From NCBI GenBank assembly GCA_965207885.1, contig OZ242311.1, positions 5,664,001 through 5,728,000 on the forward strand: DNA of 64,000 nucleotides, in the 5' to 3' direction. Below, one piece after another: positions 11,562-47,696 of the stretch. The stretch comes from Candidatus Latescibacterota bacterium (lineage in GTDB: Bacteria; Latescibacterota; UBA2968). The position numbers were made by a program, and so were the translations under genes. The notes beneath the pieces are model-generated. The model was not told the origin of the DNA and ran no database searches. It saw nothing but the letters and a program-made list of their open reading frames with translations. Position 1 is the stretch's first letter. Each line of letters opens with the position of its first letter.

Positions 11562-11573
11562 GAGGAATCTTTA

Positions 11574-12920
11574 ATGTCTAATGTAGTATTCATCATGACC
11601 GACAACCAGGGCGCATGGACCCTGGGCTGTTATGGCAACCCGGACATACAAACCCCCAACATCGACAGACTCGCAGATGAAGGGATTCGGTTCTCAAACG
11701 CCTATTGCGTAAACTCGGTCTGCTCGCCCAGCCGCGCCACATTCATGACCGGACTGATCCCCTCTCAGCACGGCGTACACTGCTACCTCGGCGGAGAAAG
11801 ACCAGATGCTCAGATGGGACCAGACGCGTACTGCACCATTCGGGAATTTGCAAACCTCCCCCGCGTAATGGCAGACGCGGGACATGTATGCGGACTGAGC
11901 GGAAAGTGGCACCTCGGAGACAGCCTGCGGCCCCAGGAGGGATTCTCATACTGGTTTACCCGCCCGAAGGGACACACCACGACATTTTACGACGATGAAT
12001 GGATCTGGCAAAACCGGGTATATACCGAACCTCGATACACAACCGAAGCCATAACAGAACACGCTCTGGAATTCCTGCGACAAAACCACCACCAGCCATT
12101 CTTCCTCTACGTAGCGTACAACGGTCCCTATGGCCTGGGAACAAGCATGCTGGAAACACATCTCAACCGACATACCGAATACTACGCGGACAAAGAACTG
12201 CCGAGCTTCCCCAGAGAGCCAGTACATCCATGGCTACGCAGCAATCGGGACATGATCAACAACCCGATAAGCATTCGCGGATATGCCGCAGCGGTCAGCG
12301 GCGTAGATGACGGGGTAGGCGAAATAACAAACGCCTTAAAAGAATACGGATTGGAAGAAGACACACTGGTAATTTTCACAGCAGATCAGGGCTGGTGCGG
12401 CGGACATCACGGAATGTGGGGCATGGGAGACCACTCCCGACCCCTGCATACTTATGAAGAAACCATCCACATCCCGCTGATATTCCGCCAGCCCGGACGG
12501 ATACCGGCAGGCAGAGTATTTGAAGGGCGAACATGCAATTACGATTTCTTCCCCTCCGTACTGGACCATCTGGAATTGCGGGAACGGATCGCCGACAACC
12601 CCAATCTCCCCGGCACAAGTTATGCCCCAGCACTTATAGGAAAAGAAATGACCTGGAATAATGAAATATTCCACGAATTTGAAAACACGCGCCTGGTGCG
12701 AAATGACCTCTGGAAATACACCTGGCGTCACCTAGATGGCCCGGATGAGCTATACGATATGCAGGCCGACCCGGGAGAACGCAACAACCTGGCGAACCGC
12801 TCCCACGCAACAGTCATCAACGAATGTCGCAACCGCATCCAGAACTTCTTTAACCAGTATGCAGACCCCCAGTACGACCTGTGGCGCGGGGGACGCTCCA
12901 AAGCGGGGCGAATCGGATAA
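11574..12920 (+). CDS. Sulfatase (Cys-type)
   Basis: NVVFIMTDN, CSPSRATFMTG, GKWH, ADQG. Confidence 0.92.
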   Translation: MSNVVFIMTDNQGAWTLGCYGNPDIQTPNIDRLADEGIRFSNAYCVNSVCSPSRATFMTGLIPSQHGVHCYLGGERPDAQMGPDAYCTIREFANLPRVMADAGHVCGLSGKWHLGDSLRPQEGFSYWFTRPKGHTTTFYDDEWIWQNRVYTEPRYTTEAITEHALEFLRQNHHQPFFLYVAYNGPYGLGTSMLETHLNRHTEYYADKELPSFPREPVHPWLRSNRDMINNPISIRGYAAAVSGVDDGVGEITNALKEYGLEEDTLVIFTADQGWCGGHHGMWGMGDHSRPLHTYEETIHIPLIFRQPGRIPAGRVFEGRTCNYDFFPSVLDHLELRERIADNPNLPGTSYAPALIGKEMTWNNEIFHEFENTRLVRNDLWKYTWRHLDGPDELYDMQADPGERNNLANRSHATVINECRNRIQNFFNQYADPQYDLWRGGRSKAGRIG

Positions 12921-23745: not shown

Positions 23746-25443
23746 ATGAGATCGTTTTCCAGGATTTTATGCCTCGTCTGCATCGTGTTTACTGCTACCA
23801 GCATTCGGGCCGAGACTGCATTACTACAGGCCATGCAGGAAGAATTGACCCGCTCCTTCAGTTCGCTCCAGAAGCAGCCGGTCCCACCCTACTACCTCAG
23901 CTATGAAATCACCGAGACGGAGGGGGTCCGCGTCGAAGCCTCCTTCGGCGTGCTGACCTACAGCAACGAATCGCGCCGCAGGCAACTCGACATTGATCTG
24001 CGCGTGGGAGACTACGCCTTCGACAATACGCATCAGGTCCGCGGTGGCCTCCGCAATTGGTCCGATCGCTATTCGAGAATCAGAATTCCCATTGAGGATG
24101 ATCCAGACGCCATCCGCAGTGTGCTCTGGTACCACACCGACAAAAAGTACAAACGCGCCATTGAACAACTGACCACGGTCAAAACCAATGTCCGGGTCAA
24201 GGTAGAAGAGGAAGACCAGTCGGACGATTTCTCCAAAGAGCCAGTTGAGCACTACATAGAAGACATCGCCTCCTTCGACATCTCCCGCGACGAATGGGGG
24301 GCCAGACTCAAGAAATACACGGCCCCCTTCGCCCAATACGGAGATATCTATGAAGCCGAAGCCAGCCTCTCGGCCAGTATCTCGACTCGCCAATACGTCA
24401 ACAGCGAAGGCAGCAAGATCCAGACCTCACAGGTACTCTACCGCCTGTTCATCTACGCCTTTACCAAGGCCGACGACGGCATGGAATTGCCGCGCTACGA
24501 ATCCTTCTCGGCCTTTACCCCGGAGGGTTTGCCCAGCGACGATGAGGTCCTCGCTCTGGTAGAGCGCATAATTGCCGACTTGCACGCCCTGCGCGACGCC
24601 CCTATAGTAGCCCCCTACACCGGTCCAGCGATTCTCTCGGGCCGCGCCAGCGGCGTCCTCTTCCACGAAATTTTCGGGCATCGCATCGAAGGTCACCGAC
24701 AGAAGCGCGAGGACGAGGGGCAGACTTTTAAAAAGAAAATAGGGGAAAAAGTCCTGCCTGAGACCTTCTCAGTTTACTTCGATCCCACCCAGACGAGCAG
24801 CGCTGACAAGGATCTGGTGGGGGCCTACGCATACGACAATCAGGGCGTCAGGGCGCAGCGGGTGGCCGTCGTCGAAAACGGGATTTTCCACCGCTTCCTC
24901 ATGTCGCGTTCCCCGATCGAGAACTTCCCCAACTCCAACGGCCACGGACGCAAGCAGCCGGGCTATGCCCCCGTGGCGCGCCAGTCCAACCTCATCGTCG
25001 AGACCTCGGACCCGCTGACCCGGGACCAACTCAAAAAAATGCTCATCGAACAGTGCCGCATGGAGGGCAAGGAGTTTGGTCTCTACTTCGAAGACATCCA
25101 GGGGGGCTTCACCATCACGGGCCGCACCTTCCCCAACGCCTTCAACGTGCTTCCCATCATGGTGTACCGCATTTACACCGACGGGCGTGAAGAACTCGTG
25201 CGCGGAGTTGACCTGATCGGCACGCCGCTCACTGCCTTCAGCCAGATCGCCGCTGCCGACGATCAGATCGGCGTGTTCAACGGTATATGCGGCGCCGAGT
25301 CGGGAGGCGTACCCGTAGCTGCGGTCTCTCCCGGCATATTCATCTCGCAGATTGAAGTACAGAAAAAAGAAAAATCCCAGGAGCGCCGTCCCGTCCTCGA
25401 AGCACCTTTCTCCGAGTCCGCTGAAGAATCAGACCTCCCTTAA
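23746..25443 (+). CDS. TldD/PmbA family metalloprotease (catalytic TldD-like), signal peptide
   Basis: HEIFGH zinc motif, YDNQGV, SNGHGR, C-terminal CGAESG. Confidence 0.85.
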   Translation: MRSFSRILCLVCIVFTATSIRAETALLQAMQEELTRSFSSLQKQPVPPYYLSYEITETEGVRVEASFGVLTYSNESRRRQLDIDLRVGDYAFDNTHQVRGGLRNWSDRYSRIRIPIEDDPDAIRSVLWYHTDKKYKRAIEQLTTVKTNVRVKVEEEDQSDDFSKEPVEHYIEDIASFDISRDEWGARLKKYTAPFAQYGDIYEAEASLSASISTRQYVNSEGSKIQTSQVLYRLFIYAFTKADDGMELPRYESFSAFTPEGLPSDDEVLALVERIIADLHALRDAPIVAPYTGPAILSGRASGVLFHEIFGHRIEGHRQKREDEGQTFKKKIGEKVLPETFSVYFDPTQTSSADKDLVGAYAYDNQGVRAQRVAVVENGIFHRFLMSRSPIENFPNSNGHGRKQPGYAPVARQSNLIVETSDPLTRDQLKKMLIEQCRMEGKEFGLYFEDIQGGFTITGRTFPNAFNVLPIMVYRIYTDGREELVRGVDLIGTPLTAFSQIAAADDQIGVFNGICGAESGGVPVAAVSPGIFISQIEVQKKEKSQERRPVLEAPFSESAEESDLP

Positions 25444-25470
25444 GCCTTTCCATCTGGCAGGAGCCATCCC

Positions 25471-27231
25471 ATGTACAAAAGAACCTTCATCCACGTTATA
25501 ACTATCTTCCTGGTGTTTTCCGCGGTCCACGCCAAAGACGACATTCTGCAACGCGCCCTGCGCGACGAACTGGCGCGCTCGATACAGCAACTCCAGCTAG
25601 AAGACCTGGAGCGCCCCTACTTTATTTCCTATCGCGTGCGCGAAGTGAAATCTAAAAGCAGTTCAGCGACCTTCGGCAGTCTGCTCAGCAGCGGCGAGGG
25701 ACACTCGCGCGAACTCAGTGTTGAAGTGCGGGTCGGAGACTATGCCCTCGACAACACCAACTTCCGCTCGTTCTCCTTCGGCCGTACGGGAGTAGTGTAC
25801 ATGTACGGGGGCAGTGTGCAATTGCCCCTTGAGGACAACTACAACGAGTTGCGGCGACAAATCTGGCTGGCCACTGACGCTGCCTACAAGAAGGCGCTCG
25901 AAGACCTGGCCAGGAAGCGCGCCACCTTGCAAAACAAAACCCGCACCGAAGAAATTCCCGATTTCAGCAGGGAAGAGCCAGCCATCAAAGTACACAAAAT
26001 GGCACCCGCCATTCTTGATCTCGACGCGATGGAACAGCGAGCGCGCCAGCTCTCGGACCTGTTCCGCGAGATGTCTGACATCTACACTTCAAGGGTCCGT
26101 TTCAACGGGTCCAACACCTCGATCTACTACCTCAACAGCGAAGGATCTTCCTTTTCTCGCACGAGTTCGTCACTATCTTTCACCGCGGTCGCCGCCACCC
26201 AGGCTCCAGACGGAATGCCGCTACAGGACTTCGTCGCTGTGTACGCCCGTTCACCGGAAAATCTTCCCGGTGACGACGAGTTGGCCGCGAAGATCAATAC
26301 CATGGGCGAGCGTCTGAAGCAGCTACGCCAGGCACCGCGGGTCGAGCGCTTTACCGGACCCGTGATATTCACGAGCCAGGCGACCACAGAGTTGTTCAAC
26401 CAGGGATTTGTGCCCTACATGCTATCGACGCGCCGGACACTGTCCGACAATCCGGATTACGAGAGTTTCTACCCCCAGAAAAAGGAAAATCCTTTCCTGG
26501 ACAAGATTGGCGTACGCGTCCTGCCCGAATTCCTCAGCGTGCGCGCTGAACCGCTCATGGACGCCTATAAAAAGCAACCCTTGTTCGGCGGCTACAGAGT
26601 TGACGACGAAGGCGTGCCAGCGCGTCCAGTCCACCTGGTGCGGGAAGGCGTATTGGAGACCTTGCTGACGACGCGCACACCTGTGCGCGGCATTGACCAG
26701 AGCACGGGCAGTCGCCGAGGTCCGGGCGTCGCCCCCAGCAATATCCTGGTCGAGGCGGAGAAGGGCTTGAGCGAAAAGCAGATCCGTGAGGAATTTTTCA
26801 AACTAATCAAAAGGCAAAAAAAACAGTACGGCTACATCGTCACCCACATCGCCAACCCTTCGTACAATGTTTCTGAATCTCCGGTTATCTACTATTCCTC
26901 TCGTTCCTCTGACGACGAGAACAAGTTGAAAAACGCGATCTTCGTCTATAAAGTCTATCTCGACGGCCGCGAGGAACTCGTGCGCAACGCGGAATTTTCG
27001 GGCATCGGCCTCTATACCTTCAAGGACATTGTGAAGGTGTCTAAGACACACGCGGTCAACACCGTTCCCTTTCGCTCGCAGGACAACTCCTCTCCCTTCG
27101 GACGGGGTGAGTCAGTCCTCGTAAGCATCGTCACTCCTCGCATGGTCCTGTTCGAGGACATCACGATCAAGCCGCCGAGCGGCGAGATTCCCAGAGCACC
27201 CGTGTCCCTACATCCCTTCTTCGACAAGTGA
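25471..27231 (+). CDS. TldD/PmbA-related protein (non-catalytic partner), signal peptide
   Basis: Paralogous to the upstream gene (ALRDELARS, PYFISY, RVGDY, DDEGV, GREELVR) but lacks HExxxH. Confidence 0.8.
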   Translation: MYKRTFIHVITIFLVFSAVHAKDDILQRALRDELARSIQQLQLEDLERPYFISYRVREVKSKSSSATFGSLLSSGEGHSRELSVEVRVGDYALDNTNFRSFSFGRTGVVYMYGGSVQLPLEDNYNELRRQIWLATDAAYKKALEDLARKRATLQNKTRTEEIPDFSREEPAIKVHKMAPAILDLDAMEQRARQLSDLFREMSDIYTSRVRFNGSNTSIYYLNSEGSSFSRTSSSLSFTAVAATQAPDGMPLQDFVAVYARSPENLPGDDELAAKINTMGERLKQLRQAPRVERFTGPVIFTSQATTELFNQGFVPYMLSTRRTLSDNPDYESFYPQKKENPFLDKIGVRVLPEFLSVRAEPLMDAYKKQPLFGGYRVDDEGVPARPVHLVREGVLETLLTTRTPVRGIDQSTGSRRGPGVAPSNILVEAEKGLSEKQIREEFFKLIKRQKKQYGYIVTHIANPSYNVSESPVIYYSSRSSDDENKLKNAIFVYKVYLDGREELVRNAEFSGIGLYTFKDIVKVSKTHAVNTVPFRSQDNSSPFGRGESVLVSIVTPRMVLFEDITIKPPSGEIPRAPVSLHPFFDK

Positions 27232-27336
27232 GGGTCGTGCCGCTGAGAATAAGCACAGAATATGCGTGACAGTTTGTGTTGCTTCGTGTATCATGAGGGT
27301 CAAAGCGTCCTCTCTCACAACTTTCAGCAAAAAATC

Positions 27337-28206
27337 ATGACCCAAACCATCTCTATAGGCGACCTGGACTTCCAGTCCAAAGACATCGACCTACAACAAG
27401 CAGCCGAGACATTCAAAACCCATGGTGCGATAGTCGTGCGGGGATTGCTCCGAGAATACATCGACGCGCTTCACCGCGACATCGAAGCCACAGCAAGGCA
27501 ATCCCTCGCCCTGCTCGATCAAGCCAGCGCAATACCCGAAGGATGGCGCACGCCCAACAACACCCTCTTTATACCCGCGCCTGAAAATTACGAACGCGAC
27601 CGACAAATTATGGTCCTGGGCATCAACTACCACACCAGCGCCACCTTCTTTCGCTCGGCATTTCACCCGCCCACCCTCGACATAGTCGAAGCCATACTCG
27701 GCCCCAACATCGAACTCTACGGCAACGGCCAATGCCTGTACAAAGAACCCGTCGGAGGCCACCCCAAACACCTGCACCAGGACTCGGCGTATTTTGAACA
27801 CCGGTACGAAGGACCCGTTGGCATCCTCACCTACGTCGTCCCCACCGACCTCAAAAACGGCGCCCTCCACGTCGTCCCCGGCTCTCACAAACTGGGACAA
27901 CTCGACCACATCGACACCTTCTCGCACCTGGGACTCGCAGACCGCGAATGGCCCTGGGAGCGCGCCCTCCCAATACCCGGTCAACCCGGCGACGCCATCT
28001 TCTTCCACGTCAAAACCGTTCACGGCTCCAAACAGAACCACTCGGACAAACCCCGCCCCGTCTTCATACACCGCTATCGCAGAGCCGATGACTACGTCGT
28101 CATACGCGGCACCACCACAAAAAACCGCGCAGAATCGGCAAAACGCGCGGCAGAGGCAAAAAAAGAAAATGGATTCATGGTGCGCGGTTTCCGCCCATAT
28201 AATTAA
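27337..28206 (+). CDS. Phytanoyl-CoA dioxygenase family (Fe/2-OG)
   Basis: HQD...NGALHVVPGSH...HGS...N.S..R. Confidence 0.88.
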   Translation: MTQTISIGDLDFQSKDIDLQQAAETFKTHGAIVVRGLLREYIDALHRDIEATARQSLALLDQASAIPEGWRTPNNTLFIPAPENYERDRQIMVLGINYHTSATFFRSAFHPPTLDIVEAILGPNIELYGNGQCLYKEPVGGHPKHLHQDSAYFEHRYEGPVGILTYVVPTDLKNGALHVVPGSHKLGQLDHIDTFSHLGLADREWPWERALPIPGQPGDAIFFHVKTVHGSKQNHSDKPRPVFIHRYRRADDYVVIRGTTTKNRAESAKRAAEAKKENGFMVRGFRPYN

Positions 28207-28346
28207 CTAATGTTACGCAGTCGTACAAAAATTGGTTGTATGTACAAAAAAATGTATGCTCAAACTAATTTAGAAGTCAAAATAATAGCTGAGTACCAGG
28301 GTTCTGCCAGATAAATCCCGCTGAACCAAATGTACCAGAAACATAC

Positions 28347-30308
28347 ATGATGAGATTTGCTGAAGAAATACTACTACTCCTCCACGACGAAGACCGGGGC
28401 GATTTCGCACCCGGTCTTGCACAGCACTCGTTGAATATCGCTCTCGCCGGTGCCGTGTTGATGGATTTGGCCCTGGAAAACCGCATCGATACCGATATCG
28501 AGCATCTCTTTTTAGTTGATGCCACGCCTCTCGAAGACGACCTGCTCGACCCCACCCTTGCCGACATCGCGCGGGATACGGACACACGAGACGCCAGCTA
28601 TTGGGTCGCACAAACGGTCAAACGGGGCGACGAAATCCGTGACAAGGCACTTGCACGGTTAGTCAACCGGGGCATATTGGAAGCCGAGTCCGAAGATATC
28701 TTCCTCCTTTCGCACCTGGTATCGCGCTCCCGCCGCTATCCAACCATTGATGGAAAAACATTAGAAGAAGTCCGGTTGCGCATTATGCGCGTACTGTTCA
28801 CCGATGAAATTCCGGACCCGCGCGACATTGTTATTATCTGTCTGGCAGATGCCTGCGGCGTTTTCAAGAATATTCTGTCCCAGTCGGAACTATCGGAGGT
28901 ACAAGAACGGATCGAACTGATTCGAAAAATGGACCTGATCGGGCAATCGGTCACCAGAGAGATCCGTGAGCATGAGCCTCCTATCCCTGCCCCACGCAAA
29001 GAAATACCCCAAGCACCGGGGTTGCCGCTTATTGGCAACACCATCGGCATGACGCGCGATTTGCGCTCGCTTCTCGTCAAACAATACCGAAACTTAGGTC
29101 CGATTTTTCGCATCAAGGCATTCAATCGCCGCTTCATCGCCCTCGTAGGTCCCGAGGCGAATACCTTCGTAAAGCGAGGGAGTAAGTACTTTCGCACGCT
29201 TGAAAACTGGGTGGATTACAACAAAGCTGGGGGAGTCGGACGCAACATAATCAGCATGGATGGCCCCGAACATATTCGCCTGCGCAAAGAACTGGCGGAT
29301 GTGTACACCCACCGCCTCATTGAAGGCCGCGTGGCAGACGTTGTCCGCGTTCTTCAACAAGACATCGCCGGATGGCCCCAGGACAAGCCGCTGCCGGGCT
29401 TATACACCTGGCAGCGCATCGTCTTAGATCAGATCGGTGTGCTGGCCCTCAGCATGCCTGTACACGACTACTTAGACGACATTATGGTTTATTTTCACAG
29501 CAAGATGAAAACGTATATCATGCGGCAGCAACCCAGGCTGATGCTATATCGACCACGCGTCCGGCGTGCCTTCAAGCGGATGGAAGAACTGACTCAGCGC
29601 ATTCTGGCAGATCACGAACCAGAAAAACGCCGCAACAAGCCACTGGATGCTATTGACCTTTTGCTGGAACTGCACCGCAGGGATCCGCAATTTCTTCCCG
29701 AGACCGATTTAGACATGCTGGGTCCTCTCACGGCCGGTCTCGATACCGTGGCAAATACCTGTGCCTTCATGTTATATGAACTGTTGAAGCGACCCGATCT
29801 GCGCGAGCAGGTAATTGCTGAAGCAGACGCCCTCTTTGACCAGGGTATGCCTGAGGTGAGCGATCTGCGTCAACTCGACGTCCTGCACCGCACGGCACTG
29901 GAAACCTTGCGCCTCTATCCCCTTGCACCGGTAATGTCATTGCGCACGGTAGCCAACTCATTTGAATTTGAGGGCTATAAGGTCCCTGCTGGCGAGACCC
30001 TTCTTATTGGATTCACAGTACCGCACCTGATGTCAGAATATTTCCCCAATCCGGAGCACTTCGATATCGACCGCTACACCGCAGAACGCGCTGAGCACCG
30101 ACAGCACGGGGTCTATGCGCCCTTCGGCTTAGGAGCGCATCGGTGCCTGGGTAGCAATCTCGCCGAAGCGCTCATTGCGCTCAACATAGCGGCCATCCTC
30201 CACGAGACCGAATTGGTTCTCGATCCGCCCAATTGCGAATTAAAGACCAAACAGACCTATTCCCTTCTACCCTACTTCAAGTTCCGCCTGGTGCGTCGGC
30301 ACCGATAG
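28347..30308 (+). CDS. GOLPH3/Vps74 (GPP34)-domain::cytochrome P450 fusion
   Basis: N-terminal ~210 aa GPP34-like (AEEILLLLHD...LAGAVLMDLALENRI...L...GIL...RYP); P450 motifs AGLDT, ETLR, F.IDRY, FGLGAHRCLG. Confidence 0.85.
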   Translation: MMRFAEEILLLLHDEDRGDFAPGLAQHSLNIALAGAVLMDLALENRIDTDIEHLFLVDATPLEDDLLDPTLADIARDTDTRDASYWVAQTVKRGDEIRDKALARLVNRGILEAESEDIFLLSHLVSRSRRYPTIDGKTLEEVRLRIMRVLFTDEIPDPRDIVIICLADACGVFKNILSQSELSEVQERIELIRKMDLIGQSVTREIREHEPPIPAPRKEIPQAPGLPLIGNTIGMTRDLRSLLVKQYRNLGPIFRIKAFNRRFIALVGPEANTFVKRGSKYFRTLENWVDYNKAGGVGRNIISMDGPEHIRLRKELADVYTHRLIEGRVADVVRVLQQDIAGWPQDKPLPGLYTWQRIVLDQIGVLALSMPVHDYLDDIMVYFHSKMKTYIMRQQPRLMLYRPRVRRAFKRMEELTQRILADHEPEKRRNKPLDAIDLLLELHRRDPQFLPETDLDMLGPLTAGLDTVANTCAFMLYELLKRPDLREQVIAEADALFDQGMPEVSDLRQLDVLHRTALETLRLYPLAPVMSLRTVANSFEFEGYKVPAGETLLIGFTVPHLMSEYFPNPEHFDIDRYTAERAEHRQHGVYAPFGLGAHRCLGSNLAEALIALNIAAILHETELVLDPPNCELKTKQTYSLLPYFKFRLVRRHR

Positions 30309-30325
30309 CAAAATGGAGCGTCAAA

Positions 30326-31456
30326 ATACCTGCTAAGAAGCCACAGTCCAGGAATGCAGATCACCCCAACACGACCGCACCGCTGCGCGTTTGGGCGAGG
30401 CTCCTCTGGGGTCAGGACGGGGTGAAGATTGCGCCCCAGCACCGGGGACGAGTGAGGCAAATTCTCCTTGGCTCGGCCCTGATGGTGCCGCTACGCTTGA
30501 TCGAAAAGATGCGCTACGGGCGCGCCGTGGCTCGGACGAAGATCGCGCATCCACCGATCTTTATCATCGGCCATGCCCGCACGGGCACGACGCACTTGCA
30601 CTATCTCCTGACGCGCGATCCTCAGTTCGCAATCGTCTCGCTGTTCCAATCCATCGCCCCGACATTCTTTCTGATCGGTCGCGGTTGGATCAAGCGTTTC
30701 ATGGCCAAGCAACTCGATCCAAAACGTCCGCAGGATGATGTCAAATTGGCGATGGACATGCCAAACGAGGAAGAATTCGCGATTGCCAATTCCTCTGACC
30801 TATCCATCGTTCACTTCCTTACATTCCCATCCAGGGCGACGGAATACTTTGAAAAATATGTCTTCATGAAGGGGCTGACCGATCGGCAACTGGCGCGCTG
30901 GGATACCGTCATCACGGACATCATTAAAAAAGCCACACTTGCGGGCGGTGGAAAACAGTTGGTACTCAAAAGCCCCTCCAACACCGGCCGAATCCCCCAC
31001 CTCCTGCGCCTTTTCCCCAATGCCAGGTTCGTTCATATCGCAAGAAATCCATGCGATGTCTATTACTCGACAAACCATACATTCAAAAAACTGTTCGAGA
31101 TATTCCCGCTGGAGGAGCATCCGGGCGATTTCTCGGATTTCGTCATCACCGAGTACAAGGCTCTAATGGAACAATACCTGAAAGACAGAGCTTTGATCCC
31201 AGAAGGCAATCTGGCGGAAGTGAAGTACGAGGACCTCATATCCGATCCGTTGGGCGAACTGGAACGCATCTACGCGACACTCGGATTGTCTGGTTGGGAA
31301 AGCGGAGGAAAGCAGGCGGTCGTCGAGTATCTGGGCACACTCTCGGACTACCAAAAAAATACATTCGAGCCGGACCCTGACGCTATGGAGCGCATCTCAC
31401 AAGCCTGGCGGTTTGCTTTCGAAGAATGGAATTATGAACTACCAATAAAGCTATAG
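30326..31456 (+). CDS. PAPS-dependent sulfotransferase; start uncertain
   Basis: PIFIIGHARTGTTHLH (5'-PSB), PNEEE, LKSP, FPNARFVHIARNP (3'-PB), YEDL..DP. Confidence 0.85.
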   Translation: MPAKKPQSRNADHPNTTAPLRVWARLLWGQDGVKIAPQHRGRVRQILLGSALMVPLRLIEKMRYGRAVARTKIAHPPIFIIGHARTGTTHLHYLLTRDPQFAIVSLFQSIAPTFFLIGRGWIKRFMAKQLDPKRPQDDVKLAMDMPNEEEFAIANSSDLSIVHFLTFPSRATEYFEKYVFMKGLTDRQLARWDTVITDIIKKATLAGGGKQLVLKSPSNTGRIPHLLRLFPNARFVHIARNPCDVYYSTNHTFKKLFEIFPLEEHPGDFSDFVITEYKALMEQYLKDRALIPEGNLAEVKYEDLISDPLGELERIYATLGLSGWESGGKQAVVEYLGTLSDYQKNTFEPDPDAMERISQAWRFAFEEWNYELPIKL

Positions 31457-31481
31457 ACCGACCTCAATCTATGTGCCAGTT

Positions 31482-32225
31482 TTAGATGAAATCCCTCGCA
31501 TTAGCCTCCACCATCACCTCAACCGCTGCCAGATGCGCCGCCACGCGCACATCCATCGGCTGTGCTGTCGGGCTTTCTGACGTCACCAGATGCCCTGTAT
31601 GGCCTCTCTGATACAAAGCGATCGGTATGCCCTCCCCGTACTTCCGCCTCGACACCTCCATATTGGGATGAATCACCCCATTGACCGCAACCTCGTCCTC
31701 AATCTCGGACTGTTTGTTAATCGGACACACCTGTGCCACCCGCGCCACCATCTCTCGCCCCAGAGATCCCCGGTCTCCAAACATCTCGTACAAATAAAAA
31801 CCCGGACTCTCCCAATCCTCGTGCAAATCGATCACACCTGCAAAAACCCGTCCTTCCACAAACCCCTTCAAAATCTCAATCTCGGGCACATCATCGCGCA
31901 AAAACGCCCAATTCACATCCACCTCCTGTGCATTGAGCCGCGCATTGTGAACATAGCTCCACGGGCACAAACACGGAATAACCTCAAAACGCACCCGATC
32001 AGCCCAGCGATCCCACTCCCTCTCCAAAAAAGCGAGCGCAGCCTCCACGCCAGCCGGTTCATCGCCGTGCGTCCCCCCATTGATATACACAACAGGCGCG
32101 TCTCCCTTGCCAGCAGACACGCACAAAACCGGCAAACCATCAACCTCCCCCAATATCTGCACATCAACACCAGACACCGCTTCCACGCGCCTGACAACAG
32201 CATCGTAATCCCGTTGAACCATCAC
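31482..32225 (-). CDS. M14/succinylglutamate desuccinylase-family Zn hydrolase
   Basis: GTHGDEPAG, DVNWAF, IDLHED, TSESP. Confidence 0.82.
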   Translation of the reverse strand: MMVQRDYDAVVRRVEAVSGVDVQILGEVDGLPVLCVSAGKGDAPVVYINGGTHGDEPAGVEAALAFLEREWDRWADRVRFEVIPCLCPWSYVHNARLNAQEVDVNWAFLRDDVPEIEILKGFVEGRVFAGVIDLHEDWESPGFYLYEMFGDRGSLGREMVARVAQVCPINKQSEIEDEVAVNGVIHPNMEVSRRKYGEGIPIALYQRGHTGHLVTSESPTAQPMDVRVAAHLAAVEVMVEANARDFI

Positions 32226-33187
32226 ATATCCCGAAGCGCATCAATCACCCGCGCGTGAATCTCACGGGCACTCACCACCACCCCGCGATTGTCCTCCATC
32301 TGAGCAGCAGATACAAAATCCAGCGGCCTGCCAAACATATCGCTCACCTTCCCACCGGCTTCCTCAACAATAAGAGCACCCGCAGCGTGATCCCAGATAT
32401 TCTCGCGATAACCCGGATATTCTGGCGACGGCAACCTCAAATACAACGCCGCATCGCCGCGTGCCACCGCACCGTATTTCACCTGACTATCCATCCTGAG
32501 CGACGGCGATTCAATACCCACCGCCCGAGCCACAGCTTTGTGTGCATCGTGATCACCGTGTGACGACTCCACACTCTCGGCAAACCGCCACGCAGGTTCA
32601 TCAATCCGAACAGCAGCAGCATCTCCACCCGCAAGAAGCATCGCCTGCGTCCCCTCTCCTCGCACCGCCACAAATAACACCCCACAATCACCCTCTACCT
32701 CCTCCATATCCACAGGCAGAGCCGGACACGCCAGCGCGGCAACCTTCACCTCACCGCAATCGATAAGAGCTAGAGCCACCGCGTATTGATCCCCGCGCAA
32801 AAAACCCTTTGTACCATCAATGGGATCGAGTGTCCAGAAACGCTCTGCAACATCCCCATTACCCGCATCAATCCAATCGCAAATTGTACCCTCATCCGCC
32901 TGTGCATACGCCCGAACAAACTCGCACACAGTCTTCCGCATCGCCGTTTGCTCTCCACCCCGAAGCACCGACGCATCTTCCTCCGCCACAATCGGATCAT
33001 TGGGAAAAACCGACTTTAATCGTCTGCACACAAGCGCCTGCGAGCCAAAATCCGCAACCGTCACCGGACTGCGATCCTCCTTCTCCATCGCCCCAACAAG
33101 TGATTTTCGCACATCCACACAAAGCCGAGCCGCCTCGCGCACAGCCTCAACAGCGACCTCGCGCTCCCGATCATATCCCATAAACAC
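32222..33187 (-). CDS. 3'(2'),5'-bisphosphate nucleotidase (HAL2-type PAP phosphatase)
   Basis: KEDRSPVTVADFGSQ, AEE, DPIDGTKGFLRGDQYAVAL, DSQVKY, ENIWDHAAG. Confidence 0.9.
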   Translation of the reverse strand: MFMGYDREREVAVEAVREAARLCVDVRKSLVGAMEKEDRSPVTVADFGSQALVCRRLKSVFPNDPIVAEEDASVLRGGEQTAMRKTVCEFVRAYAQADEGTICDWIDAGNGDVAERFWTLDPIDGTKGFLRGDQYAVALALIDCGEVKVAALACPALPVDMEEVEGDCGVLFVAVRGEGTQAMLLAGGDAAAVRIDEPAWRFAESVESSHGDHDAHKAVARAVGIESPSLRMDSQVKYGAVARGDAALYLRLPSPEYPGYRENIWDHAAGALIVEEAGGKVSDMFGRPLDFVSAAQMEDNRGVVVSAREIHARVIDALRDM

Positions 33188-33189
33188 CC

Positions 33190-34089
33190 CTATTTCTTTT
33201 GTGCACCAAAATGATCCATCTCGCCGCGATCAATCCAACCCGGCAATCTAATCTTCTCCGACATCTTCCACGCCGTCAAATAAAGTGAAACCGTAAAACC
33301 CGCAGCCCTCTTTGCATGCTTCTCTGCAAAAGCGCGCACCGCAGGCTCATTCTTCCAATCCACATCTTTTGGAACGAGATACTGCTCCATAGACAACGCA
33401 GACTCAACCTCTCCGTAACTCTCGTGCATCTGTGCCACAATACCCGTCATCAAACTATCCACGGGCGCGGCAGTCAAACCCTCGGCAATCTCTTCGGGTC
33501 TCAAATCCAAATTCTGAAGCAACCCATCAATCTTCTCGTGAATACGCGTCCTCGACGACTTGCCATCTACCACGCGACCATTCCAATGAATCGTCAAATT
33601 CAGAGGCTGACAAACCTCCTGAGCAAAATGCGCCACATACCCGGCGTATATCAAACACTTATTCTGAATATGTGGATTATCGGGCCACTTGCGAAACTCT
33701 GCAAAAGAAAGAGCGAGTTGCCCGGTATATTCCGCTGTCACGTACGGCAACAACCCCACCTGCTCTGGCTTCTTCCCCAACTCTGCACATAGCCTTGCAA
33801 ACGCGTACCGCGACGCGGGCAAATCCGCCACCTCAAACAACTCCATATTAAAATAATGAACCGGATGACCAGCCTTCTCCAGATGAAGCGTACCGCGATT
33901 CTTCGCAACATCCGGATCAACCGCCGCATGAGCCACCATACCTGCGCCAGCCCTGAGAAAAGCAGGCGCATCTGCCGGAAGAGCCTGAACAGCCGCCCAT
34001 GTCAAAATGCCGTGCCCTCGCGGCCACCAGCCCCAGGCGGACGACCCGAATACAAACAGTACCAATAAAACCATACCCAATCGACGCAT
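33190..34089 (-). CDS. Secreted S1/P1 nuclease / Zn-phospholipase C-like protein with altered ligands
   Basis: Signal peptide then WWPRGH; DPD; HFAQEVCQPLN; IHEKID. Confidence 0.7.
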   Translation of the reverse strand: MRRLGMVLLVLFVFGSSAWGWWPRGHGILTWAAVQALPADAPAFLRAGAGMVAHAAVDPDVAKNRGTLHLEKAGHPVHYFNMELFEVADLPASRYAFARLCAELGKKPEQVGLLPYVTAEYTGQLALSFAEFRKWPDNPHIQNKCLIYAGYVAHFAQEVCQPLNLTIHWNGRVVDGKSSRTRIHEKIDGLLQNLDLRPEEIAEGLTAAPVDSLMTGIVAQMHESYGEVESALSMEQYLVPKDVDWKNEPAVRAFAEKHAKRAAGFTVSLYLTAWKMSEKIRLPGWIDRGEMDHFGAQKK

Positions 34090-34108: not shown

Positions 34109-35002
34109 CTACTCCCCGTCCCAAACCTCTCGCTTCACATAATCTGCAATCTCCAAACGCTCGGACAATCGCCAGGCAGTCAAATAAAGCCGCGCGGTAA
34201 ACCGCGTCGCAGCGCGGGCGCGATCTTTTGCAAAAGCGATCACCTCGGCATTCGGTACCCAATTCTCCTCATCATATCTGGGAATATTCGGTCCCATTTC
34301 ATAAACCCGGTCAACCAGTGCAAACCCCTCCTCAAACTCCCGCATAATCTCAGACATCGTGTTTTCAAAAGGCGTCACATCCTGATTGCGCGACAAATCC
34401 CCTGGCTCCATCTTCAAAAACTGCACCAGGCCATCCACCTTCAGGTGAATACCCCTCTGCAACTTTTCGCCCCCCTCCTGCACGCGTCCATCATAGTGAA
34501 TCGTCAAATGCAAAGGCTGGCACATATCCTCGGCATAGTGCGCGAGAAAACCCGCATAAATCAGGCACTTACTCTGAATATGCGGATTATCGGGCCACTT
34601 GCGAAACTCAGCAAAAGCCACCGCCAGCCGCTCTGTCCACTCATTCACCGCATAAGGCACAAAACCCATCTTCTCGGGCGACACCCCATGCTCATAACAC
34701 AACTTCACAAACGCATAGCGACTCTCGGGCAACGCCTCCACATCGAGCATCTCGCGATCCAAAAAATGCTCTGGATACTCTGCGCCTCGCACCTGCGGCG
34801 TACCCCGGTTCTTACCCATATCGGGATCAATACTCAAATGCGCCACCGTCTTTGCCCCCTGCCTGAAAAACGCGGGAACCTCATCAGGCAAAGCCGCCAC
34901 AGCGGACAAAGTCAGAATATGATGCCCCTCCAGCAACCAGCCTCGAGCAGGAGAACACACCCCTGCGAGGAGTAAAACGGCAATAGCAAATCGTTTGATC
35001 AT
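34109..35002 (-). CDS. Secreted S1/P1 nuclease / Zn-phospholipase C-like protein
   Basis: Signal peptide then WLLEGH; DPD; HF.D; HYAEDMCQPLH; IHLKVD, the complete W/H/D Zn-ligand pattern. Confidence 0.75.
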   Translation of the reverse strand: MIKRFAIAVLLLAGVCSPARGWLLEGHHILTLSAVAALPDEVPAFFRQGAKTVAHLSIDPDMGKNRGTPQVRGAEYPEHFLDREMLDVEALPESRYAFVKLCYEHGVSPEKMGFVPYAVNEWTERLAVAFAEFRKWPDNPHIQSKCLIYAGFLAHYAEDMCQPLHLTIHYDGRVQEGGEKLQRGIHLKVDGLVQFLKMEPGDLSRNQDVTPFENTMSEIMREFEEGFALVDRVYEMGPNIPRYDEENWVPNAEVIAFAKDRARAATRFTARLYLTAWRLSERLEIADYVKREVWDGE

Positions 35003-35072: not shown

Positions 35073-35170
35073 TGGCGGGAATGTGTGGGAATCGAACCCA
35101 CCAAGCGTGGGGTTAGCACGCAACAACGGGTTTGAAGCCCGCGGGGGACACCAGTTCCCCATCCACTCCC
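35073..35170 (-). tRNA. selC: tRNA-Sec (anticodon UCA)
   Basis: GGGAGTGG...GCGGG-CTTCAAA-CCCGT anticodon arm, long variable arm (GCGTG/CACGC), GTGGG-TTCGATT-CCCAC T arm, ends ACATTCCC-G-CCA; 98 nt; adjacent to selD. Confidence 0.96.
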
Positions 35171-35172
35171 AA

Positions 35173-36216
35173 TCACGCTCGTACCTCAATCTCACCGGGA
35201 TGTTCTGCAACCACCTCGCCAATATCTCGAGCCATCACACCGCGCTCAATTAATGCCCCAAGAAAAGCATCAGCCACATCGGGCGCAAGTGCAATTAACA
35301 GGCCACCAGAAGTCTGCGGATCAAAAAACAAACGCCTCAAAGCCTCATCAACATCATCGGCAAATCTCACCGCATGCCCTCGCGCCGCCCGATTGCGCCG
35401 CAAACCACCGCCCTCGCGCCCCTCTGCAATCTGCAAAGCCAGATCAAAACGCGGCACATCAGAAGCCCGAATGCAAAACCCGACGCCACTCGCCTGCGCC
35501 ATCTCCAACCCGTGACCGAGCAACCCAAACCCCGTAATATCCGTACACCCATGCGCTTTATATGCAACCATCTCCTCAGCTGCAATGCGATTCAACTGCA
35601 CCATAGAATCTACGGCAATCTGCAAAGCATCTTCATCGATCTCGCCATTTTGATAGGCATCCGACATCAAACCCGTACCCAGCGGCTTGGTCAAAATGAG
35701 ACGATCGCCCACCCGGGCACCTGCATTGGTCTTCACATCATCTGGATGCACAACCCCCGTCACAGACAACCCGAACTTGGGCTCCACATCCTCCACAGAA
35801 TGTCCACCCACCAAAACCGCGCCAGACTCTGCCACCTTCTCCTGTGCCCCTCTTAAAACCTCGGCAATCACCTCTGGGGCGACATCATCACTCGGAAACC
35901 CGCAAATATTCAGCGCAGTAATCGGGCGCCCCCCCATCGCATACACATCGCTCAGCGAATTGGCTGCCGCAATCTGTCCATACGCATTCGGATCATCGAC
36001 AATAGGCGTAAAAAAATCCACCGTCTGAATAAGCGCCACATCCTCAGAAATCCGAAACACCCCGGCATCATCAGCCGTATTCATCCCCACCATCAAATCG
36101 GGATGCGCCACAGGCGACAACTTTTTTAAAATCACATCCAGCACCGCTGGATCGAGTTTCGATGCTCAACCACCGCAACTGACGAGCTGCGTCAATCTTT
36201 TAGCGCGATACTTCAT
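35173..36216 (-). CDS. selD: Selenide, water dikinase (selenophosphate synthetase), selenocysteine-containing
   Basis: MKYRAKRLTQLVSCGG-UGA(36168-36166)-ASKLDPAVLDVIL continues in frame into the ORF with DDAGV, QTVDFFTP, NSLSDVYAMGG, TDITGFG, DPQTSGGLL; 347 aa. Confidence 0.95.
36136..36152 (-). promoter_or_regulatory. Putative bacterial SECIS hairpin of selD
   Basis: ATCCAGC-GGT-GCTGGAT perfect stem with a G-containing loop, 13 nt after the UGA. Confidence 0.7.
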
Positions 36217-45044: not shown

Positions 45045-45788
45045 ATGACACAACAATTTGCTCTTATTCTTATTGCCTGCCTGACGATTACATCCTGTAC
45101 CGCCACAAAGGGTGCAACCGAGGCTGAGTTCAGCTTTACTTTTCAAAGTGATGCCGAAGGCTGGACAGCCGGATTTGCCGATCTTCCCGCCAACTTCGAG
45201 CCATCAATCTACGAACTCGACTCCGGTTATCGCCCTCTTCCACCAGGTCTCGAAGGCAATGGTCTCTACATCCAGGGACATAATCGCAGCGACGACCTTT
45301 TCATGTTTTTCAAGAGGCGGATTGATGGGCTTAAGGCAGATGCGACCTACGCGGTATTCGCGTCCCTCGACCTGGCGACCAACGTCCCATCCAACTTAGT
45401 TGGTATCGGTGGCTCTCCCGGCGAGAGCGTGTACGTAAAAGCGGGCGCATCTACCGTTGAACCCGTAGCAGAGGGGGCAAACCTCAGACTGAACATCGAC
45501 AAGGGAAACCAGTCCAACGGCGGCGCGTCCATGGTCGTTCTGGGAAACGTCGCTCATCCCGAGGTCGTCGGCAGAGAGTTTCGGCTCAAGTCTCTTGACA
45601 ACGCCGACAATCCAGTGCATGTCACCACTGACAGCAAGGGCGGGCTCTGGCTAATCGTCGGTACCGACTCTGGCTTTGAGGGACTGAGCACGTTCTACTA
45701 CGCCCGCATTGCCTACACACTCAAAGTAGTGGAATCCCCTAACTCGGGGGCTTCTCTTCTCGGGCCGAGTAGCCGGGGTTTGGATTAG
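45045..45788 (+). CDS. Hypothetical lipoprotein
   Basis: Lipobox-like ITSC; GW..GFAD.P, G.NRSDDLFMF, IDKGNQ, WLIVGTDSGFEG. Confidence 0.7.
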   Translation: MTQQFALILIACLTITSCTATKGATEAEFSFTFQSDAEGWTAGFADLPANFEPSIYELDSGYRPLPPGLEGNGLYIQGHNRSDDLFMFFKRRIDGLKADATYAVFASLDLATNVPSNLVGIGGSPGESVYVKAGASTVEPVAEGANLRLNIDKGNQSNGGASMVVLGNVAHPEVVGREFRLKSLDNADNPVHVTTDSKGGLWLIVGTDSGFEGLSTFYYARIAYTLKVVESPNSGASLLGPSSRGLD

Positions 45789-45871
45789 GTTTGCACAGTA
45801 CTCAATATTCATTTGTTGTGCGGGAACGACCGGTTTAGATCACGGTTTTTGAAAGCTAATAGCGATAGATG

Positions 45872-45900
45872 TTGACATAAGTCCGGCAGAATGCGATACT
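45872..45900 (+). promoter_or_regulatory. Sigma70 promoter for hicBA
   Basis: TTGACA-N17-GATACT with extended -10 TG. Confidence 0.6.
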
Positions 45901-45932
45901 TTCCACACATTGCGCCAGAGGAGGAGTACAAG

Positions 45933-46178
45933 ATGGTAGAAGGATATCGATTACATCTTCAGATCACGCGAGTAGAAAACGGCCAACACCTCGCTACCTC
46001 TGATGATTTTCCCGGTCTTGTGGCACAAGGAAGAACCGTGTCTGAAGCGATTGAAATTGCTCAAGACGTGGCAAGGAAACTAATTGAATCCTATCGGGAA
46101 CATGGCGACATTCTGCCAAAGGGTTTGCAGGCTATAAATACAGAGAGCGTTGAATTGGACGTTCTCGTAGGCGTGTGA
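45933..46178 (+). CDS. hicB: Type II TA antitoxin HicB
   Basis: FPGLVAQGRTVSEAIEIAQD; GAGGAG RBS. Confidence 0.85.
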   Translation: MVEGYRLHLQITRVENGQHLATSDDFPGLVAQGRTVSEAIEIAQDVARKLIESYREHGDILPKGLQAINTESVELDVLVGV

Positions 46179-46402
46179 TGGGTCGGCTGGCAGGTTTTAC
46201 GTATCGACAAGTGACCCGCAAATTGCGGCGGTTGGGATTCGAGTTTGATCGGCAAGCACGGGGAAGTCATGAGATCTGGTGGAACCCTGAGACGCGATAT
46301 CGAACTACTATTCCCAATCATCCTGGAGACTTACCAGAAGGAACTTTATCCGCAGTTCTGAAGCAAGCGGGTATAACCGCGGAAGAATTCCTTAGAGCTT
46401 AG
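46175..46402 (+). CDS. hicA: Type II TA toxin HicA
   Basis: LRRLGFEFDRQARGSHEIW...TIPNHPGDLPEGTL. Confidence 0.9.
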   Translation: MMGRLAGFTYRQVTRKLRRLGFEFDRQARGSHEIWWNPETRYRTTIPNHPGDLPEGTLSAVLKQAGITAEEFLRA

Positions 46403-46444
46403 GATGTGCGTATATCTCGCTATCTCCGTTAAATGAGGCCCATC

Positions 46445-46705
46445 ATGAAAACAGGATGTGCTTTCTGTGGTCATAAAGAACTCCGGTCTTGCCAAACGCA
46501 ATACATTTACCGGCACGATGGCAAATTTCTTATTGTAGATGATGTGCCCTGTCTCCAGTGTGCATATTGCGGCGAGCAATATTTTGAAGGTCGGGTATTG
46601 CGGAATATTGAAAAACGATTCAACGAACTCCATGTTCAGGGTCAGAAAGCGAGCAAGGAAGTTCAGATTCCCGTAGAACACTTCGCGGACCTTTGTCAGA
46701 CCTAA
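46445..46705 (+). CDS. YgiT-type zinc finger protein (MqsA-like antitoxin domain)
   Basis: CAFC...IVDDVPCLQCAYCGEQY. Confidence 0.82.
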   Translation: MKTGCAFCGHKELRSCQTQYIYRHDGKFLIVDDVPCLQCAYCGEQYFEGRVLRNIEKRFNELHVQGQKASKEVQIPVEHFADLCQT

Positions 46706-46756
46706 AGTAGTTGGCAGATAAAGAGAGCGCAAGAGTTGGCGCAAGGAGAATAAATC

Positions 46757-47128
46757 ATGGCAGACTATATCCGTAGTTCGGGAAACGTTTTTAAGGATTT
46801 GGAGATTCCTTCTTCTGATGAAAGGTTGGCAAAAGCGAAGTTAGCATATAAGATCAACCGCTTGATCGCCGATCAGGGAATGAGCCAAAAGAAAGCCGCG
46901 GATTTTTTGGGAATAAGTCGATCAAAAATGACGGAACTGAGAAATGGTCGCTTAAAGGGTTTCACCATCGACTGTCTGTTCTCCCTGTTGGGAAAACTGG
47001 ATCACCCTTCTCCCACTCGACATCGAACAAACAAATCCGTAAAAGACCATGAAGCTTTTGGGATGTGGCGAGACAAAAAAGATATGGCAGATGTCGATGC
47101 TTACGTCCGCAATTCGAGAAAGGTATAG
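46757..47128 (+). CDS. XRE-family HTH antitoxin (HigA-like) with C-terminal extension
   Basis: SSGNVFKDL...AKAKL...SQKKAADFLGISRSKMTELRNG.L.GFTID.L. Confidence 0.8.
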   Translation: MADYIRSSGNVFKDLEIPSSDERLAKAKLAYKINRLIADQGMSQKKAADFLGISRSKMTELRNGRLKGFTIDCLFSLLGKLDHPSPTRHRTNKSVKDHEAFGMWRDKKDMADVDAYVRNSRKV

Positions 47129-47415: not shown

Positions 47416-47449
47416 TTTATGTAACATACAACCTCATTGTGCTAACGGA

Positions 47450-47686: not shown

Positions 47687-47696
47687 GATAAAGCTC

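Follow-up and report, generated by a model that had tools for sequence, protein, structure and literature searches.

Bacterial proteins of the GPP34 family were surveyed by Ferreira et al. (Microbiome 2025; PMC11706023), who reported the family as restricted to sponge symbionts, present in 16 of 20 phyla, and expressed in situ. Its long form, named GPP34_L, combines a GPP34 domain with a cytochrome P450 in 656 of the 663 long GPP34 proteins of that survey. GPP34_L was reported from sponge symbionts only, in most of their genomes and in ~14 phyla, including 92.6% of the symbiont genomes of both Latescibacterota and Gemmatimonadota (Table 1 of that paper), with 1-6 paralogues per genome, and from none of the free-living relatives examined there. 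The authors proposed that GPP34 is a secreted effector that binds phosphatidylinositol 4-phosphate (PI4P) and halts phagosome maturation. The main text of the paper contains no occurrence of "sterol", "sulfotransferase", or "binding pocket", and no residue-level analysis; no other study of GPP34_L surfaced in our full-text literature searching. Here we report a computational analysis of a GPP34-P450 fusion gene in a 64,000-nucleotide stretch of a Candidatus Latescibacterota bacterium genome (assembly GCA_965207885.1, contig OZ242311.1, positions 5,664,001 to 5,728,000, forward strand; hereafter the window), as well as of its relatives and their gene neighborhoods. The chief new evidence is that the fusion gene is recurrently adjoined by a gene for one of three types of transferases. 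We propose that these genes form a "hydroxylate, then conjugate" cassette, to which we assign a probability of about 0.5.

The fusion is encoded by a single open reading frame (ORF) of 653 uninterrupted codons with an ATG-ATG start (Table 1), and the original prediction, which had read it as a GPP34 domain, an EPPIPAPR linker, and an intact P450, is borne out in every detail. Both Pfam profiles match above their cut-offs, PF05719 (GPP34) with an E-value of 9.6e-36 and 124.2 bits versus 29.1 across positions 2-200 of the 201-position profile, and PF00067 (p450) with an E-value of 2.6e-53 and 181.9 bits versus 22.8. The interdomain linker varies in length and sequence within the family. In the P450 domain, the AGLDT motif of the I-helix holds the acid-alcohol pair for O2 activation. 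Ten positions (G464, T467, E519, R522, F593, G594, G596, H598, C600, and G602) are invariant in an alignment of 12 family members (A2), and E519, R522, G594, H598, and C600 are also invariant in an alignment of 40 sequences that reaches 28% identity (A1); a third alignment (A3) holds 35 close relatives. The two domains and the intact catalytic motifs reside in one protein. The fusion has no room for a signal peptide, since the Pfam domain begins at residue 5, and contains no transmembrane-like segment, the top 19-residue hydropathy being 1.7, at the P450 L-helix. In line with the original prediction, it is not a redox-partner fusion: no flavin, ferredoxin, or iron-sulfur domain is fused, and Pfam at E<=0.01 gives GPP34 and p450 only. 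A full-length AlphaFold2 (AF2) model built with 40 sequences reached a predicted local distance difference test (pLDDT) of 88.9 and a predicted template modeling score (pTM) of 0.81. Prediction of a complex between the separate GPP34 (residues 1-210) and P450 (residues 222-653) parts scored 0.00 twice, a result that was obtained without controls and says nothing either way.

Table 1. Features of the fusion gene and its surroundings in the window (positions are those of the window; residues are those of the fusion protein).
Feature	Position	Strand	Basis
GPP34-cytochrome P450 fusion gene, 653 aa (P0001)	28347..30308	+	Single ORF, Pfam, database relatives
GPP34 (GOLPH3/Vps74-fold) domain, residues 5-208	28359..28970	+	Pfam, Vps74 alignment, AF2 model, Foldseek
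Pro-rich interdomain linker, residues 209-221, including EPPIPAPR (residues 210-217)	28971..29009	+	Sequence, alignment
Cytochrome P450 domain, residues 222-636	29010..30254	+	Pfam, nearest solved sequences, Foldseek
I-helix AGLDT, residues 463-467	29733..29747	+	Sequence, alignments
K-helix ExxR (ETLR), residues 519-522	29901..29912	+	E519 and R522 invariant
Heme-binding loop FGLGAHRCLG, residues 593-602, with Cys600 thiolate ligand	30123..30152	+	G594, H598, and C600 invariant
Sulfotransferase (Sulfotransfer_3), likely partner	30233..31456	+	Pfam, alignment, adjacency, charge
HAL2-type 3'(2'),5'-bisphosphate nucleotidase	32222..33187	-	NCBIfam TIGR01330, 303.7 bits vs cut-off 267
PhyH-family Fe(II)/2-oxoglutarate dioxygenase, directly upstream of fusion	27262..28206	+	Pfam
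TldD/PmbA-like pair (565 and 586 aa), insertion relative to L001	23642..27250		
AcrB-type RND (resistance-nodulation-division) pump (1053 aa), insertion relative to L001	12924..16378	-	
tRNA-Sec	35073..35170	-	ARAGORN; Rfam RF01852, 70.1 bits
selD	35173..36144	-	TIGR00476, 348.5 bits
ORF without a family match	33190..34089	-	
ORF without a family match	34109..35002	-	

The architecture is widespread. In an index of 5.8 billion proteins, 1205 of the 8000 scored candidates had E<=0.001, and 118 of the best 120 relatives carry both Pfam domains at 55-94% identity, mostly with lengths of 655-670 amino acids; the few named ones among these 120 are called "cytochrome P450" only and come from Gemmatimonadota metagenome-assembled genomes (MAGs) and one Albidovulum MAG. 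Among 1.84 billion cluster representatives, searched exhaustively, 30,946 matched at E<=0.001, 566 of them at E<=1e-30; by reading of the match table, ~44 of the best 150 contain both domains at full length, with identities as low as 30%, and four of these, which match in multiple stretches, were confirmed with Pfam. On contigs from one genome per species, searched with alignment A2, a relative is encoded at 587 of 619 pattern matches, and the best 80 were reduced to 67 loci (numbered with L; individual proteins are numbered with P). An intact two-domain ORF is present in 44 of the 67 loci, in at least eight phyla and in some cases on complete chromosomes, and split or truncated copies in four (L017, L025, L031, and L043). 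The host MAGs belong to Latescibacterota, Binatia, Gemmatimonadota, Acidobacteriota, Chloroflexota, Alpha- and Gammaproteobacteria, and Bacteroidota. The fusion is thus not peculiar to this assembly, and, contrary to what had been supposed, it is not new: the window protein is a member of the published GPP34_L, with the same order of PF05719 and PF00067, the same length class, the same phyla, and no structural difference from the published description. A joining of two genes by a chimeric contig or a frameshift was also considered, as separate genes for GPP34 and for P450 exist in 11 and 8 loci, respectively, and no other support for it was found. The same continuous ORF in 118 of the best 120 relatives and 44 independent loci, together with the independent publication of the fusion (PMC11706023), leaves that explanation with practically no probability, and the recurrence of the intact ORF across at least eight phyla refutes it.

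Counting the window with the 44 intact-fusion loci, 30 of 45 loci carry a same-strand transferase gene no more than 600 nucleotides from the fusion ORF; the gap is mostly shorter than 60 nucleotides. Three enzyme types account for these neighbors. Sulfotransferases of the Sulfotransfer_3 family adjoin the fusion in 13 loci, either downstream (the window, L001, L003, L020, L024, L048, and L052) or upstream (L005, L007, L009, L027, L030, and L037); membrane acyltransferases of the Acyl_transf_3 family do so in 11 loci (L022 and L059, for instance), and ecdysteroid-kinase-like kinases (APH/EcKL) in 6 (L028 and L051, for instance). A major facilitator superfamily (MFS) transporter is encoded 3' of the kinase in six loci and 5' of the fusion in L010. 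Among the acyltransferases, the partner in a Gemmatimonadetes MAG (L033, 12016-13698) is split by ankyrin repeats (Ank_2, E-value 6e-20).

At least one of the three transferases is encoded within ±10 kb of the fusion in 33 of the 44 fusion loci, versus none of the 11 loci with a stand-alone GPP34 gene (213-252 amino acids, 54-61% identical to the N-domain) and one of the 8 loci with a stand-alone P450 gene (~50% identical to the C-domain). Within ±10 kb of the stand-alone GPP34 genes, no P450 of the fusion's family was found (0/11), and no GPP34 was found near the stand-alone P450 genes (0/8); the P450 genes reported near short GPP34 genes (GPP34_S) in two actinobacterial clades (PMC11706023) are therefore not reproduced in these mostly Chloroflexota loci. 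The stand-alone loci have no conserved neighbors. On a quick tree of the fusion proteins, the partner type is clustered, with 14 changes versus a mean of 27.2 after shuffling, and in 0 of 200 shuffles was the number as low. Well-supported clades mix phyla, such as gammaproteobacterial and Longimicrobiales copies that are ~0.1 substitutions per site apart. Taken together, the clustering and the phylum-mixing clades suggest that fusion and partner are inherited and transferred together.

In the window, the likely partner is the sulfotransferase, and its homology begins only 27 nucleotides past the fusion stop codon (~30335). The sole in-frame ATG, GTG, or TTG codon upstream is the TTG at 30233, which would create a 76-nucleotide overlap with the fusion gene, and the same layout is found in L001 and L003. 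Such a layout points to translational coupling with a non-canonical start codon, or else to a long gene overlap. A conserved, strongly basic N-terminal extension of ~70 residues (residues 35-107 of the ORF), with a net charge of +12, precedes the GxxRxGTT motif that binds 3'-phosphoadenosine 5'-phosphosulfate (PAPS). A gene for a HAL2-type nucleotidase follows ~770 nucleotides downstream of the sulfotransferase stop codon, on the opposite strand, and is shared with L001 only; its product would clear 3'-phosphoadenosine 5'-phosphate (PAP), the by-product of PAPS-dependent sulfation, which would link it to the cassette. The PhyH dioxygenase gene directly upstream of the fusion is a possible but weak candidate for cassette membership, given that PhyH genes lie within 10 kb in 4 of the 44 fusion loci, and 3' of the fusion in L027 and L030. 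A scan for promoters and terminators across 27000-32400 gave nothing decisive.

A comparable gene pair is the cyp128-stf3 operon of Mycobacterium tuberculosis, for which it was proposed that the P450 hydroxylates an isoprenoid quinone that is subsequently sulfated, yielding the sulfomenaquinone S881 (PMC6469627). In both cases P450 and sulfotransferase genes are adjacent on one strand; the mycobacterial system differs in having no GPP34, a P450 of another family, and an actinobacterial pathogen as host. A looser parallel is with animal CYP enzymes and cytosolic SULT sulfotransferases, or with insect EcKL kinases, where a substrate is oxidized, its hydroxyl is conjugated to sulfate or phosphate, and the product is exported. 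This is an analogy only, since the genes found here encode bacterial Sulfotransfer_3 and APH/EcKL-like proteins and are adjacent and apparently operonic.

Based on this gene context, we propose that GPP34_L may be a soluble cytoplasmic monooxygenase, in which the P450 domain would hydroxylate a lipophilic substrate, probably a sterol, a hopanoid, or another isoprenoid-type lipid, and that the new hydroxyl would then, in the presumed order of reactions, be conjugated by the enzyme encoded next to it. In the window this step would be carried out by the PAPS-dependent sulfotransferase, with the HAL2-type PAP phosphatase encoded close by. In other lineages, it would be performed by an Acyl_transf_3 O-acyltransferase, or by an ecdysteroid-kinase-like phosphotransferase, after which the MFS exporter would remove the product. 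The proposal differs from the published one in the functional reading only, a cytoplasmic enzyme cassette versus a secreted PI4P effector (PMC11706023).

The same core chemistry would also serve in defense against toxic sponge natural products, by an analog of phase I/II/III metabolism with P450 oxidation, conjugation, and MFS efflux, and the two explanations differ in the substrate alone. Detoxification would account for three interchangeable types of conjugating enzymes, for an MFS transporter resembling drug exporters (with matches to Pfam TRI12), and for cassette clades that cross phyla; the EcKL kinases are named after steroid and detoxification kinases in their Pfam description, and multiple paralogues per genome (1-6 in PMC11706023; two on one contig of 5,391,951 bases in our set) would fit as well. 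Against it, a fixed and conserved accessory domain would be unusual for a broad-specificity detoxifying P450, and the fusion lies inside apparent triterpenoid or sterol biosynthetic clusters in three loci. We therefore regard xenobiotic defense as possible but rather unlikely.

These three loci bear on the substrate class of the proposed cassette. In an Acidobacteria MAG (L023), the fusion gene is followed by genes for a squalene-hopene cyclase and a sulfotransferase; the cyclase reaches 547.6 bits in its NCBIfam equivalog family versus a cut-off of 431.1 and has the sequence DCDD at the DxDD motif. In an Arenicellales MAG (L053, 5995-16984), a pair of fusion genes stands in tandem, separated by an Acyl_transf_3 gene of opposite orientation. 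The pair is followed by a gene for a 1128-residue fusion of squalene epoxidase and an oxidosqualene-type cyclase, and then, on the other strand, by a sterol methyltransferase gene (Sterol_MT_C). This cyclase has oxidosqualene cyclase as its best NCBIfam match, at 714 bits under a cut-off of 851, with VTDCTAE at the VxDCTAE motif, and the locus looks like a compact sterol cluster. We take the DxDD and VxDCTAE motifs as markers of the respective cyclase types. In a Vicinamibacterales genome (L050), the order is fusion, Rieske/KshA_C oxygenase, and sterol methyltransferase, and the weak best match of the oxygenase is the sterol C4-methyl oxidase SdmA. The L053 fusion directly upstream of the oxidosqualene cyclase gene recalls the position of CYP51 in the sterol clusters of sponge symbionts, where ERG24-CYP51-LSS clusters were reported in 115 of 537 Ircinia-associated MAGs from 10 phyla overlapping the hosts of the fusion (PMC9531527). 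Functional sterol methyltransferases from sponge symbionts have also been described (PMC10070321), so that a sterol-type substrate is plausibly available in the host bacteria.

Comparison with solved P450 structures is consistent with a lipophilic substrate. By sequence, the nearest are Methylococcus CYP51 (E-value 6.6e-32), mycobacterial CYP51B1, CYP184A1, CYP120, CYP11A1, CYP3A7, and BM3-type enzymes, all of which are lipid, sterol, or terpenoid oxidases; by structure (Foldseek), they are BM3, CYP51, and CYP184A1, with TMt of ~0.8 and 20-24% identity. In the Foldseek search with the full-length model the P450 part dominates, and no substrate class stands out. These relatives are far too dissimilar for a substrate to be assigned from them, and NCBIfam P450 matches fall far under their cut-offs (pentalenene oxygenase, for example, 98 bits versus 800). 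The sequence comparison does not qualify the fusion P450 as a CYP51 orthologue. The CYP51-ferredoxin fusion of Methylococcus capsulatus (6mcw, 7jj1) is among its best or near-best solved relatives (TMt 0.81-0.82), yet identity is ~23%, the best match covers the C-terminal half only, and the domain fused here is not a redox partner; moreover, AGLDT in the I-helix presumably departs from the CYP51 signature. The self-sufficient fusions BM3/CYP102 and CYP505 likewise join a P450 and a second domain in one chain, and BM3 heme domains are among the top structural matches. The additional domain of the fusion is N-terminal and matches no flavin or iron-sulfur family, so that electrons must come from separate proteins. 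Two further groups of relatives were seen. A divergent set of GPP34-P450 proteins in alignment A1 (P0155, P0161, P0167, P0168, P0173, P0214, and P0246) lacks the Asp-Thr pair of the I-helix, having, for example, AGHY-TG or AAIY-LG with a one-residue deletion there, and their oxygen-activation chemistry may differ. Close P450 relatives without GPP34 (P0220, P0252, P0258, and P0267; 718-739 amino acids, 33-37% identity) combine the P450 with two cyclic-nucleotide-binding domains, and represent another non-redox P450 fusion.

The sterol or triterpenoid identity of the substrate remains tentative and less probable than the cassette itself. The lipophilic sterol or lipid substrate of the original prediction gains support from genomic context (L023, L053, and L050) and from nearest solved P450s that include CYP51.

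Several observations and features of the data weigh against the proposed cassette. The loci represent the best 80 of the 587 relative-encoding matches, at one genome per species. Neighboring ORFs of at least 100 amino acids were called by a crude script of our own, and hidden Markov models built from Pfam-verified neighbors were used to map homology envelopes. In 11 of the 44 fusion loci, all three transferases are absent within 10 kb: five are from Vicinamibacteria or Vicinamibacterales and have AMP-binding ligases, one is L050, two lie near contig ends, and three have nothing recognizable. The stand-alone control sets of 11 and 8 loci are small and taxonomically narrow, being mostly from Chloroflexota or Acidobacteriota. 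The tree of 46 proteins was a quick maximum-likelihood reconstruction with a midpoint root, and near-copies inflate the clustering of partner types. Adjacency indicates linkage and says nothing of the order of reactions. Carbohydrates are frequent substrates of Acyl_transf_3 and Sulfotransfer_3 enzymes, and the best NCBIfam match of the L002 acyltransferase is MdoC, under the cut-off. The P450 is only 20-24% identical to CYP51 and BM3, cyclase or sterol methyltransferase neighbors occur in just 3 of the 44 fusion loci, and across loci no recurrent ferredoxin or reductase gene was found beside the fusion.

Having set out the gene context, we turn to the GPP34 domain, on which the published proposal rests. 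An AF2 model of residues 1-215, built with 35 sequences, reached a pLDDT of 91.2 and a pTM of 0.89. Foldseek gave eight matches to this model at E<=0.001, each of them GOLPH3 or Vps74 (TMq 0.63-0.72), the best being the GOLPH3 structures 3kn1 and 9qpq_B with TM of 0.71-0.72, and a search of the ESM Atlas gave GPP34 clusters only. As modeled, the N-domain shares the GOLPH3/Vps74 fold, as had been predicted, including the helical core and the beta-hairpin. It differs from GOLPH3 and Vps74 in its sequence (16-18% identity), in a client-site loop 2 that is ~10 residues shorter in the window protein, in being acidic and fused to an enzyme, and in starting straight at the core fold (profile position 2 corresponds to residue 5). 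Some relatives carry the domain twice, namely P0125 (GPP34-GPP34-P450, 872 amino acids) and P0157 (tandem GPP34, 444 amino acids), which hints at a domain acting as a dimer, like GOLPH3/Vps74.

The PI4P pocket was mapped by mutagenesis to W88, R97, K178, and R181 in Vps74, equivalent to W81, R90, R171, and R174 in GOLPH3 (PMC2806290), and later work reported that R97 and the beta-hairpin are critical for client binding too (PMC12478125). The phmmer alignment of the N-domain with Vps74 is clear at both pocket sites (SLNIALAGAVLMDLAL versus SISYALRGCIIIELAL, and IRDKALARLVNRGIL versus VRERLAKGLVDKGVL), with a convincing motif alignment near Vps74 residues 91-106 and 180-194, and places A25, A34, D95, and R98 of the window protein at the four positions. 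The position of the essential Arg97 is occupied by Ala in all 35 sequences of alignment A3 and in 33 of the 40 of A1 (V, S, T, or G in the others). The W88 position is Pro, Ser, or Ala in the relatives and Trp in none, the K178 position is mostly Asp, and R181 is the single pocket site that is mostly kept (Arg in 31 of 35). In addition, the domain is strongly acidic, with a net charge of -18 over residues 1-215 in the window protein and a family median of -13 (isoelectric point (pI) ~4.7, n = 35), versus a median of +8 for the P450 domain of the family. The lost PI4P residues and the acidity disfavor phosphoinositide binding by the eukaryotic mechanism, so that, judging by these residues, a role of GPP34 as a phosphoinositide sensor is unlikely; it may yet bind a lipid or a protein through another surface.

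These data bear directly on two explanations that rest on membrane binding. In the published proposal, symbiont GPP34 would be secreted, bind host PI4P, and stall phagosome maturation, while the P450 part would modulate phagocytosis (PMC11706023). The reported restriction to sponge symbionts and in situ expression favor it, as does the retained GOLPH3 fold. However, the pocket residues are lost in an acidic domain, there is no signal peptide (though a dedicated system might still secrete the protein), the main text of the proposal offers no residue-level analysis, and the enzyme, a heme protein dependent on cytoplasmic redox partners, is encoded next to, and on the same strand as, PAPS- or ATP-dependent cytoplasmic enzymes. 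In sum, a secreted effector appears very improbable. The second explanation is that a PI4P-like GPP34 domain literally substitutes for the N-terminal membrane anchor found in eukaryotic P450s, thereby directing the enzyme to sterols in the membrane. It would fit the lipid and sterol gene context, and a hairpin is predicted in the N-domain (strands 111-115 and 118-121) as in the membrane-inserting beta-hairpin of Vps74/GOLPH3. Nevertheless, with the pocket lost, a net charge of ~-13 disfavors electrostatic binding to anionic bacterial membranes, and Glu and Asp abound in the hairpin of the window protein (LEAESEDIFLL), making a membrane anchor improbable as well. Accordingly, the membrane targeting envisaged in the original prediction is not supported in the eukaryotic, PI4P-dependent manner, while the domain composition, the non-redox nature of the fusion, and, from genomic context only, the lipophilic substrate are supported. 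The statement that bacterial GPP34 homologues are uncharacterized is outdated, given the 2025 survey (PMC11706023), and holds insofar as none has been studied biochemically.

Within the proposed cassette, GPP34 would instead be a non-catalytic adaptor that does not bind PI4P and may hold the P450 to a partner protein or to the lipid substrate. A candidate partner is the sulfotransferase, whose basic N-extension GPP34 might contact much as Vps74 binds basic client tails; the charges of -18 and +12 are complementary, which we take as favoring the idea. A role as an adaptor for partner tails is doubtful, being less probable than xenobiotic defense or a sterol-type substrate. Still more speculative, and on balance improbable, is the fuller picture in which GPP34 represents an ancestral version of the client-tail binding of Vps74/GOLPH3, acts as a scaffold for basic transferase tails in a P450-transferase metabolon, and belongs to cassettes that spread horizontally among sponge symbionts of many phyla and make sulfated, acylated, or phosphorylated lipids of the sterol or hopanoid type.

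The wider surroundings of the fusion in the window appear to be local. The nearest genome is a Latescibacterota MAG chromosome (L001) with ~94% nucleotide identity to the window, and homologues of the 22 other ORFs at 16-42 kb are found mostly in L001 only. Relative to L001, the window has two insertions, with the TldD/PmbA-like pair and the AcrB-type pump (Table 1), and L001 carries ~790 extra bases between the PhyH and fusion genes. Since the homologues are mostly confined to L001 and TldD/PmbA occurs in 0 of 67 loci, the larger neighborhood lies outside any conserved system. The two TldD/PmbA-like genes (23746-27231) raised the idea that the fusion is a P450 modifying ribosomally synthesized and post-translationally modified peptides (RiPPs), with GPP34 recognizing the leader peptide and the two upstream proteins acting as proteases. 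ApyO, a RiPP P450, is matched weakly in NCBIfam (83.8 bits versus a cut-off of 525), which, like the reported binding of short peptide tails by Vps74 (PMC12478125), is compatible with this idea; on the other hand, the pair is inserted with respect to L001, which is 94% identical, and no recurrent precursor peptide or other RiPP gene was found across the loci. Being highly improbable, this idea was dropped on the lack of conservation of the pair.

Further features of the window were noted. A tRNA-Sec gene lies directly downstream of selD, which indicates that the organism uses selenocysteine, and two minus-strand ORFs without a family match might hold in-frame TGA codons. The window is rich in genes related to sulfate esters, with four sulfatases, a formylglycine-generating enzyme (FGE-sulfatase), a GH2 glycosidase, and two MacB/FtsX-type permeases (spans 10158-12920, 49002-49763 (-), 52426-53895 (-), and 55043-56488). 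Along the whole window, all 2-kb bins show a negative GC skew and a mostly positive AT skew, and the cumulative GC skew is -5.46; GC content is lower in two stretches (4-10 kb and 46-50 kb), and the interval 45788-47697 lacks any ORF of 150 amino acids or more.

Sulfated sterols are known from sponges. If the scaffold and metabolon picture were true, bacteria would be a source of these compounds, and a lipid signal might take part in the recognition between host and symbiont. By the data of PMC11706023, few markers of a life in symbiosis with sponges are shared as widely as GPP34_L, and PI4P mimicry, which is based on the eukaryotic homologues, is the sole functional idea that our literature searches found for it; the residue and charge data undercut that idea, and the transferase pairing together with the occasional placement in sterol or hopanoid clusters provides a concrete enzymatic hypothesis. 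If the cassette is correct, it would give a function to bacterial GPP34 and would bear on which organisms make the modified sterols of sponges, and hence on the sterane biomarker debates (PMC10070321).

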